This document shows, piece by piece, positions 154-52,355 of a stretch of 64,000 nucleotides of DNA. Position numbers and translations under genes: made by a program. This stretch comes from Octopus vulgaris (Eukaryota): positions 151,156,001 to 151,220,000 of the forward strand of contig OX597817.1 of the NCBI GenBank assembly GCA_951406725.2. Reading direction: 5' to 3'. How positions within the stretch are numbered: the stretch's first letter is position 1; each line of letters opens with the position of its first letter. Under the pieces are notes generated by a model. The model worked only from the letters and a program-made list of their open reading frames with translations, made no database searches and was not told the origin of the DNA.

Positions 154-310
154 CATTTTCAATAACTGTCACACTGCCATAATAATCCAGAGCCCTCTCT
201 GATATGACCGTATGTTCACCGGGATCATAGAAATTGTGGCAGAATTGACTGTTACTGATAGCTTTGCCACTGTTGAATGAACGCTTTCCACTGACAATTC
301 CAGATGTTTC
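154..310 (-). CDS. Exon 20: [52 protein letters not shown] (gene continues)
   Basis: TTCTTCAG| ... ATG|GTAATT, 157 nt, phase 0-1. Confidence 0.9.
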
Positions 311-51300: not shown

Positions 51301-52355
51301 AAATTTCAAAATAATTTTTCACAGAAAAAACATCCAGTTGTTATTGTAATTTTTCTTGAATTTAATTTGTTTACTTCTGGAAAATGTCATATCATTATTG
51401 TTTATCCTTCAAATAGATGTAGAGGTGGAGGAAACTTTCTCTGTATGTGCACGCATGTGTGTATTTATGTATGTGTGTGTATGTTTATGTATGTTTATAT
51501 ATATATATATAGACGCAGGAGTGGCTGTGTGGTAAGTAGCTTGTTTACCAACCGCATGGTTCCGGGTTCAGTCCCACTGCGTGGCACCTTGGGCAAGTGT
51601 CTTCTACTATAGCCTCGGGCCGACCAAAGCCTTGTGAGTGGATTTGGTAGACGGAAACTGAAAGAAGCCCGTCGTATATATGTATATATATACGTGCGTG
51701 TGTGTGTTTGCGTGTCTGTGTTTGTCCCCCTAGCATTGCTTGACAACCGATGCTGGTGTGCTTATGTCCCCGTTACTTAGCGGTTCGGCAAAAGAGACCG
51801 ATAGAATAAGTACTGGGCTTACAAAAAAGAATAAGTCCCGGGGTCGAGTTGCTCGATTAAAGGCGGTGCTCCAGCATGGCCGCAGTCAAATGACTGAAAC
51901 AAGTAAACGAGTAAAAGAAAAGAGAGTATATAGTTAATGCCATAAAAATTCAGAAACTCCAAGAGAATGTGAAATAATTAATATCCACCCAAAATCATTA
52001 GGCGTCATCAACAACACTACGAACCATGTGACAAATCACATGACCACAGTGTTTCTGTAGACAGTTCAAGACACTTTTCGGTTGCAGACGAAGTCCAATA
52101 AAGTTGTGTGGAATTTATCTGGCTGACCATTCTTTTTCTGCCCACAAAAATATTAAGACAATACCCTTTCATCTGTCTACACATCTCATTGCCTAGAAAA
52201 CATCCATGGATACATTCTGTCATAAAGCTTAGCATCGAAACAAAACCCTTAATGTAGCAACTGATTAATGAAACCACATAACATACCTGTCCTTCTTCAA
52301 GTGAAAGGTTTTGAGGTATGAAACCTTTCTGACCAATTTTAACGTTGTGTGTCAT
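154..52355 (-). CDS. Spliced gene (20 coding exons in window, 3' end beyond left edge): uncharacterised protein of 7 tandem cupredoxin/plastocyanin-like repeats, >=700 aa
   Basis: All 20 exons have AG acceptors and GT donors with matching phases. Summed CDS is 2101 nt (700 codons + 1) with no stop. Each ~100-aa repeat follows V-x-V...F-x-P-x-x-(L/I)-x-(I/L)-x-x-G-x-x-V-x-W-x-W...H-N-(I/V)...F-x-x-P-G-x-Y-x-(Y/F)...G-x-I-x-V, the beta-sandwich pattern of plastocyanin-type cupredoxins. Confidence 0.9.
745..996. repeat. Near-perfect palindrome (125-bp arms, 2-nt loop) in a (TA)n-flanked element running to ~1092
   Basis: 745-869 is the reverse complement of 872-996 with about 3 mismatches. Confidence 0.95.
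1210..1662. mobile_element. Penelope-type pseudo-LTR remnant with internal inversion and two degenerate hammerhead motifs
   Basis: ~1350-1477 is inverted at ~1532-1662. Both arms carry CTGACGA...GAAA CATATG T(C/T) GGAAG, and (TA)n flanks both sides. Confidence 0.7.
1911..1999 (-). ncRNA. Type I hammerhead ribozyme in Penelope pseudo-LTR (same strand as host pre-mRNA)
   Basis: TTTAG CTGATGA [~60-nt stem II GTAC..GTAT] GAAA CAATTG TA CTAAA. Confidence 0.85.
3445..5741 (-). pseudogene. Penelope-like RT/GIY-YIG polyprotein, disrupted
   Basis: RT motifs VRLICP, FDINSYY, PMGS, LYRDD, NFLDITL and SNHPP. Then IIWLNIPF, the linker [12 protein letters not shown]...YIG (GIY-YIG), R-x3-H and CQLC. One frameshift near 5178 and an in-frame TAA at 5020-5022. 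Confidence 0.92.
5827..5915 (+). ncRNA. Type I hammerhead ribozyme, inverted pseudo-LTR copy
   Basis: Stem I TTTAG/CTAAA, core CTGATGA 5832-38, GAAA 5899-5902, palindromic stem III, GUA cleavage triplet. Confidence 0.85.
6800..7265. repeat. Degenerate (CA)n/CATGCATGAA minisatellite
   Basis: Repeated CACACACATGCATGAA units. Confidence 0.9.
7436..7504 (-). CDS. Exon 19: [23 protein letters not shown]
   Basis: TTATTTCAG| ... |GTAAGT, 69 nt, phase 0-0. Confidence 0.92.
7613..7915 (+). mobile_element. LINE (RTE-like) 3' end with (GAT)n tail; related copies at ~10425-10650 (-), 18165-18420, 27040-27622, 32185-32348, 39620-39960 (-)
   Basis: Shared ...CCATGCTAGCATGGAAAGCGGACGTTAAACG(ATG)n terminus. 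Clade assignment is from memory. Confidence 0.7.
8126..8512 (-). mobile_element. tRNA-derived SINE (family C); related copies 36066-36370, 42914-43190, 61651-62027, 62633-62910, 63868-64000
   Basis: Head GGAGGCGCAATGGCCCAGTGGTTAGGG...GGTTTCGATTCCC has A/B boxes. TSDs are visible at the 61651 copy (AACTAAGAAGA) and the 62633 copy (ATATGAAAATAA). Confidence 0.88.
8988..9320. mobile_element. Non-autonomous DNA element (Helentron/HINE-like); second copy 39240-39580
   Basis: Two similar copies start AACAAGAGCACTCAGAGA and end ACAAACAAACATGACTG..AACAATACC. This copy is nested in a TTAA-CCC MITE (8810-9367). Confidence 0.6.
9402..9518 (-). CDS. Exon 18: [39 protein letters not shown]
   Basis: TTTTTCTCCAG| ... 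|GTAAGT, 117 nt, phase 0-0. Confidence 0.9.
9643..9875 (-). mobile_element. SINE family B (core GCCTTTCATCCTTTCGGGGTCGATAAATTAAGTACCAG, MetaSINE-like); copies 14558-14790, 33778-34008, 35731-35962, 50727-50957, 55543-55775, 57666-57895 (+)
   Basis: Multi-copy, with TSD TTATGAACTTAAGAG here and ATTGAGCACTGATACC at 55527-42/55776-91. Confidence 0.9.
11279..11580. repeat. (TA)n/(TACA)n microsatellite; similar tracts at 10228-10326, 46898-47030, 57495-57580, 58170-58635, 59310-59580
   Basis: Direct inspection. Confidence 0.97.
12055..12745 (+). mobile_element. Internally deleted mariner transposon
   Basis: TA TSD, ~29-bp TIRs TTGGGTTGTCCAGAAAGTT.., N-terminus [13 protein letters not shown] joined to C-terminal [18 protein letters not shown] fragment inside. 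Confidence 0.92.
13575..13975 (+). mobile_element. SINE family A (tRNA head + ACCTTGGGCAAGT CORE-like segment + internal microsatellite); copies 16200-16480, 18820-19230, 40050-40445, 51516-51920, 59427-59785 and others
   Basis: Multi-copy, with TGGCTGTGTGG (A box) and GGTTCAGTCCC (B-box-like). Confidence 0.9.
14042..14114 (-). CDS. Exon 17: [24 protein letters not shown]
   Basis: TCTTTTTTTAG| ... AAG|GTAAAA, 73 nt, phase 2-0. Confidence 0.88.
15028..15200 (-). CDS. Exon 16: [57 protein letters not shown]
   Basis: TTTTCTTCAG| ... |GTACAG, 173 nt, phase 0-2. Confidence 0.88.
15751..15799 (-). CDS. Exon 15: [16 protein letters not shown]
   Basis: TTTCTTTTCAG| ... CAG|GTAAAA, 49 nt, phase 2-0. 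Confidence 0.85.
17213..17325 (-). CDS. Exon 14: [37 protein letters not shown]
   Basis: GTTTAG| ... AAG|GTATGA, 113 nt, phase 0-2, FNSG and PGTYYY motifs. Confidence 0.92.
21710..21788 (+). tRNA. tRNA-Lys(TTT)-like gene or pseudogene with 6-nt insert after position 37
   Basis: GCCTGCATAGCTCAGTCGGTAGAACATCAGACTTTTA[TAAGTA]ATCTGAGGGTCGCAGGTTCGAGTCCCTCTGCGGGTG. Acceptor and anticodon stems pair, D stem has 1 and T stem 2 mismatches, and a T5 run follows. Confidence 0.75.
22804..22885 (-). ncRNA. Type I hammerhead motif in (TA)n-flanked element 22706-23150
   Basis: GGCGACTCG CTGATGA [long stem II] GAAA CCGCGG TA CGAGTTGTT. The base of stem II has an A.A mismatch. Confidence 0.75.
24075..24191 (-). 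CDS. Exon 13: [39 protein letters not shown]
   Basis: CTCTTCCAG| ... CAG|GTAATG, 117 nt, phase 0-0. Confidence 0.92.
24571..24728 (-). CDS. Exon 12: [52 protein letters not shown]
   Basis: TTATTTCCAG| ... AAG|GTAAAG, 158 nt, phase 1-0. Confidence 0.88.
26514..26618. repeat. (ATT)n microsatellite; also (TCTA/TCTG)n at 32912-33140 and compound (AAT)(GAT)(AAG) at 50960-51200
   Basis: Direct inspection. Confidence 0.97.
28739..28870 (-). CDS. Exon 11: [43 protein letters not shown]
   Basis: TGTTTTCCAG| ... TAG|GTAAGT, 132 nt, phase 1-1. Confidence 0.88.
29054..30010. repeat. Three diverged tandem copies of a ~325-bp unit
   Basis: CAAATAATTT(G/C)TTTGCT..AATT at ~29054, 29382 and 29706, with shared CCA(G/A)GTTGAAACAC and CTCTGAA. 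Confidence 0.85.
30194..30354 (-). CDS. Exon 10: [53 protein letters not shown]
   Basis: TTTTCTCTTTCCAG| ... |GTGAGT, 161 nt, phase 2-1. Confidence 0.92.
34601..34635 (-). CDS. Exon 9: [11 protein letters not shown]
   Basis: TTTTCTTTTGGCAG| ... CAG|GTAAGT, 35 nt, phase 0-2. Confidence 0.85.
36773..36844 (-). CDS. Exon 8: [24 protein letters not shown]
   Basis: TTGGTAG| ... GAG|GTATGT, 72 nt, phase 0-0. Confidence 0.83.
38540..38617 (+). ncRNA. Type I hammerhead motif in (TA)n-flanked element ~38060-38650
   Basis: GTGG CTGAAGA AGGCT[...]GGCCC GAAA CATATG TA CCGC. Confidence 0.78.
39071..39167 (-). CDS. Exon 7: [32 protein letters not shown]
   Basis: TTATAG| ... |GTCAGT, 97 nt, phase 2-0. 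Confidence 0.9.
40812..40898 (-). CDS. Exon 6: [28 protein letters not shown]
   Basis: TTTTTCTTCAG| ... |GTATGT, 87 nt, phase 2-2, carries the PGxYY motif. Confidence 0.9.
41160..41580 (-). mobile_element. RTE-clade LINE 3' fragment inserted in a SINE
   Basis: Translation [31 protein letters not shown] matches the RTE C-terminal pattern, and ~48-bp direct repeats flank it. Confidence 0.75.
44085..44129 (-). CDS. Exon 5: [14 protein letters not shown]
   Basis: TTTTTCAG| ... |GTAAAT, 45 nt, phase 2-2. Confidence 0.82.
44728..44918 (-). pseudogene. Partial duplicate of exon 4 plus its upstream intron (pseudo-exon)
   Basis: Collinear with 46715-46900, acceptor AG retained at 44868-69, TGG>TGA at 44741-43, 3' part and donor missing. 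Confidence 0.9.
46642..46854 (-). CDS. Exon 4: [70 protein letters not shown]
   Basis: TTCATTCGAAG| ... |GTAAGC, 213 nt, phase 2-2. Confidence 0.88.
48195..48310 (-). CDS. Exon 3: [38 protein letters not shown]
   Basis: TTCTAG| ... |GTAAGT, 116 nt, phase 0-2. Confidence 0.88.
48352..48876. mobile_element. piggyBac-type MITE
   Basis: TTAA|CCCCTTGAC ... GTCAAGGGG|TTAA. Confidence 0.8.
48925..49749. mobile_element. 825-bp foldback DNA transposon (MITE) with ~400-bp inverted arms
   Basis: GGATCTTTTCC...GGAAAAGATCC termini, 8-bp TSD ACATTGTG (48917-24, 49750-57), (CCCTAA)n/(TTAGGG)n blocks within the arms. Confidence 0.93.
51239..51286 (-). CDS. Exon 2: [16 protein letters not shown]
   Basis: TTTCCTTTCAG| ... 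CAG|GTATCA, 48 nt, phase 0-0. Confidence 0.85.
52287..52355 (-). CDS. Coding exon 1: [23 protein letters not shown] (exon starts 52366)
   Basis: Acceptor TCTGCAG (AG at 52367-68), donor CAG|GTATGT, ends phase 0. The start ATG at 52355 is inferred. Confidence 0.8.

Follow-up and report, generated by a model that had tools for sequence, protein, structure and literature searches.

Seven tandem cupredoxin-like repeats, encoded by the gene LOC115211041 on the minus strand of a 64,000-nucleotide stretch of Octopus vulgaris DNA (contig OX597817.1; hereafter the window), were compared with the closest described systems. The small blue copper proteins (plastocyanin, amicyanin and halocyanin; PF00127, PF13473) have in common with these repeats the fold, an upstream His (in four of the repeats) and, in halocyanin-like repeats, a W-x-W strand, whereas the octopus repeats lack the Cys-His-Met loop and are fixed tandem copies in a giant protein without an export signal. 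Multicopper oxidases and their copper-poor relatives (ceruloplasmin, factors V and VIII, laccases) also carry tandem cupredoxin domains; unlike them, the octopus protein has seven domains, not two, three or six, is apparently not secreted and contains no HCH motif, either in the 700 residues encoded in the window or in the family consensus. Ephrin receptor-binding domains and apicomplexan SRS domains are cupredoxin folds that have lost copper and now serve as protein-binding modules, according to PMC6485061. Those domains are extracellular, attached by a transmembrane helix or a glycosylphosphatidylinositol anchor, whereas the octopus repeats are structurally nearer to the plastocyanin type and apparently cytosolic.

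Other parts of the protein also have described counterparts. DZANK1, an intracellular protein of the cilium base, has one homologous domain of approximately 100 residues (E 6e-6), but the octopus protein carries neither its zinc ribbons nor its ankyrin repeats. The TlpA/ResA-type thioredoxin-fold proteins (SdbA, Etrx2, DsbE) have the same fold (Z 12.6-13.6) and, as in Octopus, a W-C-x-x-C motif; in the octopus family, however, this domain is fused to the end of a chain of FN3 domains and its second Cys is replaced by Ser in 22 of 28 proteins. That chain has parallels in cytoplasmic FN3 arrays such as RIM-binding protein, in which SH3 domains flank three FN3 domains, and titin-like muscle proteins, with super-repeats of I-set Ig and FN3 and a kinase domain. 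No SH3, Ig or kinase domain was reported in the family, and the cupredoxin head is not common to both. A plastocyanin-like domain has also been attributed to PKHD1L1, for which the literature search gave no support. The same gene is present in the databases in annotated but uncharacterised form (XP_036357779.1, XP_029635765/6.1; CAI9721999.1).

The gene is real and already annotated (as “uncharacterized”), and its function is uncharacterised. Its exon structure, the order of its domains, the disappearance of the copper Cys and the constant counts of repeats and domains were established directly, and the product is a cupredoxin-fold protein but neither a type-1 copper protein nor a multicopper oxidase. 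The function that we tentatively favor, at somewhat less than an even chance, is that of a cytoplasmic scaffold which may link a membrane with microtubules, probably those of cilia or basal bodies.

Scans for splice sites and motifs placed 20 minus-strand exons between 52366-52287 and 310-154, all of them (20/20) with an AG acceptor and a GT donor. Exon sizes were 35-213 nt and intron sizes 0.4-7.1 kb, and the spliced coding region of 2,112 nt gave 703 codons free of stops. Codons 4-703 matched residues 1-700 of O. vulgaris CAI9721999.1 at every position and without gaps (100% identity); against O. sinensis XP_036357779.1, four of the 700 positions differed (99.4% identity). The splicing is supported by phase, splice signals and matching protein models; since the exons had been chosen partly by phase, the external protein match was the decisive check. 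The O. vulgaris and Argonauta records bear the O. sinensis name and were possibly derived from the O. sinensis record; orthologues annotated separately in other phyla showed approximately 31-42% identity over the 700-residue region. An initial annotation, made from the letters of the window, had proposed these 20 exons, spliced in phase into 700 amino acids (aa) from the ATG at 52355, and the public protein bears out both the exons and the start. The same annotation had described the gene as hidden and its product as seven repeats only. Neither description stands: the gene is in public databases, exon 20 closes with a phase-1 GT donor at 153, and 2,430 more residues are encoded outside the window, which holds the first 700 (22%) of an annotated protein of 3,130 residues (3,130-3,138 in the Octopus models). 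The exons are the following:

52287..52366, minus strand: exon 1, residues 1-23, repeat 1; ATG at 52355, acceptor at 52366
51239..51286, minus strand: exon 2, residues 24-39, repeat 1
48195..48310, minus strand: exon 3, residues 40-78, repeat 1
46642..46854, minus strand: exon 4, residues 79-149, end of repeat 1 and repeat 2 with C125-x3-H129
44085..44129, minus strand: exon 5, residues 150-164, repeat 2
40812..40898, minus strand: exon 6, residues 165-193, repeat 2, with T173 at the copper-Cys position, E174, H182 and C184
39071..39167, minus strand: exon 7, residues 194-225, repeat 3
36773..36844, minus strand: exon 8, residues 226-249, repeat 3, with C226-x3-H230
34601..34635, minus strand: exon 9 (35 nt), residues 250-261, repeat 3
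30194..30354, minus strand: exon 10, residues 262-315, repeat 3 with D280 at the copper-Cys position, and start of repeat 4
28739..28870, minus strand: exon 11, residues 316-359, repeat 4
24571..24728, minus strand: exon 12, residues 360-411, repeat 4
24075..24191, minus strand: exon 13, residues 412-450, repeat 5, with H446
17213..17325, minus strand: exon 14, residues 451-488, repeat 5, with S488 at the copper-Cys position
15751..15799, minus strand: exon 15, residues 489-504, end of repeat 5
15028..15200, minus strand: exon 16, residues 505-562, repeat 6
14042..14114, minus strand: exon 17, residues 563-586, repeat 6, with S579 at the copper-Cys position
9402..9518, minus strand: exon 18, residues 587-625, end of repeat 6 and start of repeat 7
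7436..7504, minus strand: exon 19, residues 626-648, repeat 7, with H637
154..310, minus strand: exon 20, residues 649-701, repeat 7; phase-1 GT donor, the gene running past the window edge

The spliced product contained the seven repeats of approximately 100 aa and the motifs that had been quoted from them (43 protein letters, not shown). Their fold was predicted with AlphaFold2 from O. sinensis residues 1-700 and 34 homologues. The resulting model (predicted local distance difference test, pLDDT, 87.6; predicted template modeling score, pTM, 0.82) had its best structural match in the Nitrosopumilus purple cupredoxin 5fc9 (Z 13.9, root-mean-square deviation (rmsd) 1.4 Å over 86 residues); plastocyanins (Z 10.5-11.3), amicyanin (Z 10.4) and ephrin (Z 7.4) were also matched. 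Repeats 5 and 7 reached Z 13.9 and 13.1 to 5fc9 and repeats 1, 3 and 6 approximately 7-8, while repeats 2 and 4, with no separate cupredoxin match, were assigned by the common repeat profile. The sequence match to amicyanin was weak (E 2e-4), single-exon Pfam searches gave weak matches only, in two of 12 exons (E ~0.05), and the ESM Atlas returned only prokaryotic Copper-bind clusters (0.76-0.84), which serve as leads only. The predicted model thus supports the membership of the repeats in the cupredoxin fold superfamily (Greek-key beta-sandwich), as the initial annotation had supposed. Ceruloplasmin and factor VIII (E 1e-18) took the top Foldseek ranks with whole-chain TM-scores of approximately 0.1, so that the domain packing appears unlike theirs. 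Two-domain superpositions of the predicted model on multicopper oxidases gave rmsd values of 7-20 Å, with Z below 7 at rmsd 7-8 Å.

In the register with amicyanin, the position of the copper Cys is occupied by L78, T173, D280, V392, S488, S579 and S685 in repeats 1-7, and the Cys-x-x-His-xn-Met loop is missing from all seven (7/7), as had been stated. The Thr, Asp and Ser replacements were kept in 27-33 of 34 orthologues, among which a Cys was found at this position only twice, in repeat 6. The upstream His, reported initially for repeats 2, 3, 5 and 7, was retained as H129 (29/34), H230 (32/34), H446 (30/34) and H637 (34/34). The W-x-W strand described as conserved was indeed present, but it is not specific to the family, as it also occurs in copper-binding halocyanin-like repeats (P0047, P0048). 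An extra Cys four residues before the His of repeats 2 and 3 had been missed (C125 in 28/34, C226 in 30/34). Other residues kept were E174 (30/34), H182 (27/34) and C184 (31/34) in repeat 2 and D280 (33/34) in repeat 3.

Beyond the repeats, the full protein continues with a CHB_HEX_C_1/Fn3_assoc-type (DZANK1-type) domain, two FN3 domains, an acidic low-complexity linker (residues ~1060-1210), 14 further FN3 domains, a Cys/His-rich segment, a thioredoxin fold and a basic tail; the last FN3 is interrupted by a long helical hairpin. Seven repeats were counted in 27 of 28 full-length proteins, the exception beginning within repeat 1, and, by a custom FN3 profile, 10 of 12 proteins had 16 FN3 domains. 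The domain that directly follows the repeats matched DZANK1 residues 22-123 (PDB 11xu; E 6e-6). The best matches of the FN3 domains were titin (top, E 4e-29) and fibronectin, and matches to Pfam Ig_RIMBP2 (E 1e-16, in P0002) and to Drosophila RIM-BP (E 2e-9) were also obtained. Pfam scans of the Octopus protein (P0113) and its orthologues reported no SH3 family, and those of family proteins no I-set Ig or kinase family.

The C-terminal 890 residues of a member of the Octopus cluster (P0114) were modeled with FN3 domains, the helical hairpin and the thioredoxin fold (pLDDT 75.7, pTM 0.45). In this predicted model, the TlpA-like fold, encoded outside the window, matched SdbA with Z 13.6 and rmsd 2.6 Å over 138 residues; the Pfam Thioredoxin match (E 2.6e-4) was under the curated cut-off. 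Among 28 proteins the motif was WCxxS in 22, WCHPC in two (both from Octopus) and WCxxA in one, with no Cys in two and no motif in one (rotifer), and a conserved G-[VL]-P motif stood at the usual cis-Pro position. Since this fold carries WCHPC in Octopus, the whole protein cannot be called non-redox, as had been done at first. The canonical WCHPC lies at Octopus residues ~2907-2915 (P0100/P0113, outside the window), in a protein with neither an MG start nor an RPxSA tail; judged from the sequences, this gain and the two losses are an octopod-specific remodeling.

A single-exon search of 1.84 billion representatives gave 64 matches, and a regional search 34 further ones, 24 of which were named animal proteins aligned across the repeat region. 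The named members came from gastropods, bivalves, cephalopods, annelids, a nemertean, a flatworm, an orthonectid, a rotifer, a crinoid, sea urchins and a hemichordate. Full-length orthologues were found in spiralians, echinoderms and hemichordates, and short pieces in the sponge Sycon and in Hydra. The named matches included no protein from vertebrates, arthropods or nematodes; because the searches were word-based or single-exon, they do not show absence. An initial word-based search, limited to proteins of up to 2,000 aa, gave no match, and the patterns used on GTDB prokaryote genomes, an insensitive approach, found no relative. The prokaryote-type multi-cupredoxin matches P0047 (halocyanin-like) and P0048 were rejected as members, their copper loops being intact, unlike those of the family. 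Echinoderms, hemichordates, annelids, rotifers and flatworms are not known to use haemocyanin for oxygen transport, and this range leaves the link to haemocyanin suggested initially unsupported.

Furthermore, a quick tree was built of 105 domains, which covered 14 family proteins together with two repeats of sponge origin and two proteins of prokaryote type. The repeats grouped by position and not by species (17 label changes against a shuffled mean of 74), with few branches strongly supported. The sponge repeats fell with positions 1 and 2, and the prokaryote-type copper-binding domains formed a separate group. Since the repeats cluster by position across phyla, the array would be old and each repeat specialised. 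This clustering and the fixed repeat number speak against the earlier idea of a ruler made of interchangeable units. Additionally, Hydra vulgaris XP_065656899.1 (P0014) carries a DZANK1-type domain ahead of two repeats, opposite to the bilaterian order, and a Sycon cluster (P0011) consists of six records of approximately 300 aa with three repeats; these forms may be fragments, permutations or ancestral short forms.

The cellular location was approached through the ends of the protein. In a Kyte-Doolittle hydropathy scan (not SignalP) of 10-residue windows that begin within residues 1-30, the highest mean was 0.31, in agreement with the lack of a signal peptide claimed initially. No 19-residue hydropathy window exceeded 1.86 in any of the 41 family proteins (41/41), and the Octopus N-terminus was polar. 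A Gly2/Ser6 N-terminus is a cytosolic myristoylation signal. The corresponding MGxxxS was N-terminal in 23 of 41 proteins, which supports the intracellular, scaffold-like nature proposed in the initial annotation; a related MGx[GA][AP]S was internal, behind a predicted extension, in seven, and 11 proteins had none, including three octopod models and several partial models. At the other end, RPx[ST][AGP] occurred within the last 200 residues of 23 of 28 proteins, and the looser RPx[ST][AS] was counted 48 times against 0.9 in shuffles. The tails of both Octopus proteins were less basic and contained only RPNSS. According to PMC6293279, RPx[ST][AGP] corresponds to the consensus of CDKL5 as it occurs in MAP1S and CEP131. 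DZANK1 is placed at the basal body and microtubules in PMC4617706, and described as a transition-zone microtubule-associated protein in a preprint (bioRxiv 10.64898/2026.06.11.731632).

Taken with the contrast in pTM between the seven repeats (0.82) and the C-terminal 890 residues (0.45), these indirect signs would fit a membrane-to-microtubule scaffold that would work as follows. In most animals, an N-terminal myristoyl group would anchor the seven-repeat head at a membrane, where the head, predicted to be a compact unit, could serve as a docking platform for proteins. The FN3 chain would reach tens of nanometres into the cytoplasm. There, the helical hairpin, the thioredoxin-fold domain and the basic RPxSA tail might bind a far partner, either a microtubule or a basal-body protein, with a CDKL5-type kinase and a single reactive cysteine as regulators. 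The octopod form, with no MG start, no RPxSA tail and a full CxxC, would be derived, with perhaps another targeting and redox activity. From rotifers and flatworms to hemichordates the architecture is constant, which suggests a role in some organelle that demands a set geometry.

Several points weigh against the scaffold reading. Data on localisation, expression or interactions were found for none of the family members; the gene ids were absent from three searchable supplements of an O. vulgaris brain atlas (PMC9712504), a weak result as these are marker lists only, and from two supplements of PMC12551290. The Octopus protein has neither the myristoylation motif nor the strict RPxSA motif, so that these two supports come from orthologues only; the motif counts belong to related species, and the motifs were defined after the consensus had been seen. 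The DZANK1-type domain is common in unrelated, mostly unnamed proteins, and 10 of the 34 regional matches lay only there. No vertebrate match was seen, although vertebrates are ciliated, and the top FN3 matches, titin and fibronectin, are not ciliary proteins.

The strongest alternative, unlikely but with an appreciable share of the probability, is a membrane-bound metal or redox sensor or chaperone, in which a rebuilt pocket in repeats 2-3 would bind Zn or Cu(I) and the thioredoxin fold would be catalytic; it is compatible with a scaffold role. Repeat 2 offers Cys-x3-His with Glu/His and repeat 3 Cys-x3-His with Asp, largely conserved among 34 orthologues, and the amicyanin register would place the conserved residues in loops around the copper site, with H182 near the axial Met position. 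The conserved Cys-x3-His of these two repeats may be a copper site rebuilt for another metal. The meeting of the candidate ligands in space is nevertheless deduced from that register, and the Ser or Thr that replaces the copper Cys in repeats 2, 5, 6 and 7 would also suit a structural hydrogen bond with the His that is kept. Similarly, the WCxxS of 22 of 28 proteins and the WCHPC of both Octopus proteins suit a catalytic domain, but two orthologues have lost the thioredoxin Cys and the rotifer protein has no such motif.

Less probable is a structural spacer which, like titin or myomesin, would serve in the muscle or cell cortex of invertebrates. It would account for the giant size, the fixed FN3 number, the acidic low-complexity linker and the titin match (E 4e-29), but that score is summed over generic FN3 repeats, the Pfam scans reported neither I-set Ig nor kinase families, and fragments occur in a sponge, a group not known to have muscle. 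Slightly lower still we place a presynaptic or secretory-site scaffold that, like RIM-BP, would bind channels of the plasma membrane. The FN3 matches to Ig_RIMBP2 and Drosophila RIM-BP and a myristoylation motif suited to the plasma membrane would agree with it, whereas no SH3 family was reported and the gene id was missing from the three brain-atlas marker lists, a weak point.

The secretion of the protein, or its exposure at the surface like ephrins, factor V/VIII or fibronectin, by means of a signal-peptide exon upstream of the window, is very improbable. Animal cupredoxin and FN3 folds are mostly extracellular, and exon 1 has an acceptor and four open codons ahead of its ATG; but the same start Met was used in three octopod models (which have a common name and are maybe not independent), the orthologues have polar MG N-termini, and an in-frame stop lies five codons before the nearest strong upstream donor (52629). 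Lastly, a stand-alone 700-aa protein of repeats only, the form described initially, can practically be dismissed. Short models are present in the databases (804 aa in Argonauta, 725 aa in Patella, ~300 aa in Sycon), but exon 20 closes with a donor, the models from Octopus reach 3,130-3,138 residues and the Argonauta model itself extends into the next domain.

Whichever function applies, a conserved family of proteins of 3,000-4,000 residues was found to be without literature: none on the family or its architecture in open-access papers and bioRxiv, and none under the gene ids, which agrees with its initial description as uncharacterised. Moreover, the animal cupredoxin folds compared here (ceruloplasmin, clotting factors, ephrins) are secreted or at the surface, whereas the seven of this family are apparently cytoplasmic. 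A wider and rather improbable proposal would combine the tether with metal and redox sensing. In an ancient, undescribed animal family, a prokaryote-type blue-copper domain would have given rise to a rigid cytoplasmic head of seven domains that bears new Cys-x3-His metal sites and is joined to a 16-FN3 rod and a thioredoxin domain as a membrane-anchored metal/redox-sensing tether at cilia. The family would have existed in some form since sponges and possibly been lost in vertebrates and arthropods, and octopods would have swapped the lipid anchor for a full CxxC.

The acceptor at 52366 indicates that an exon upstream of exon 1 exists or existed. The stretch from 52366 to 64000 yielded no MG-start exon; none of its five ATG-GG sites resembled the family motif. 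A strong donor was observed at ~52629-52646 (minus strand), 262 nt upstream of exon 1, with the in-frame reading stop-L-G-K-S-T-D-G-N-T-M and a TTG at the position of the family Met-Gly start; this region is possibly an exon of the 5' untranslated region, a relic of the lost myristoylation start, or chance. A four-codon upstream open reading frame, out of frame, was seen at 52352-52366 (minus strand), its ATG at the exon 1 acceptor and its TGA overlapping the annotated ATG. Two open frames on the plus strand just upstream of exon 1, at 52635-52901 (88 codons) and 53255-53614 (119 codons), resembled degraded mobile-element coding sequence and matched neither Pfam nor the intron-19 element described below.

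Within the introns, a partial duplicate of exon 4 was detected in intron 4, together with upstream intron and acceptor:

44724..44944, minus strand: truncated exon-4 duplicate, 91% identity over 222 nt, in-frame TGA

This is a decaying exon copy outside the annotated protein, rejected as a coding exon for its stop codon. The exon candidate at 27989-27894 was also rejected, as it was unneeded for phase and absent from the annotated protein. Intron 19 held at 3445-5777 (minus strand) a reverse transcriptase (RT)-like frame (5163-5777), without a Pfam match, and a 524-codon frame with a long Asn-rich insertion that ended in a GIY-YIG domain (Pfam E 1.4e-4); we take this element to be a Penelope-like retroelement relic from the GIY-YIG match and its motifs. 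In the AT-rich DNA of the window, an Rfam tRNA match of 41.5 bits at 21710-21788 (plus strand), uncalled by ARAGORN, is probably the head of a tRNA-derived short interspersed element or a pseudogene. Finally, two perfect 182-nt tandem copies were present at 56392-56756, either a recent duplication or an assembly artefact.

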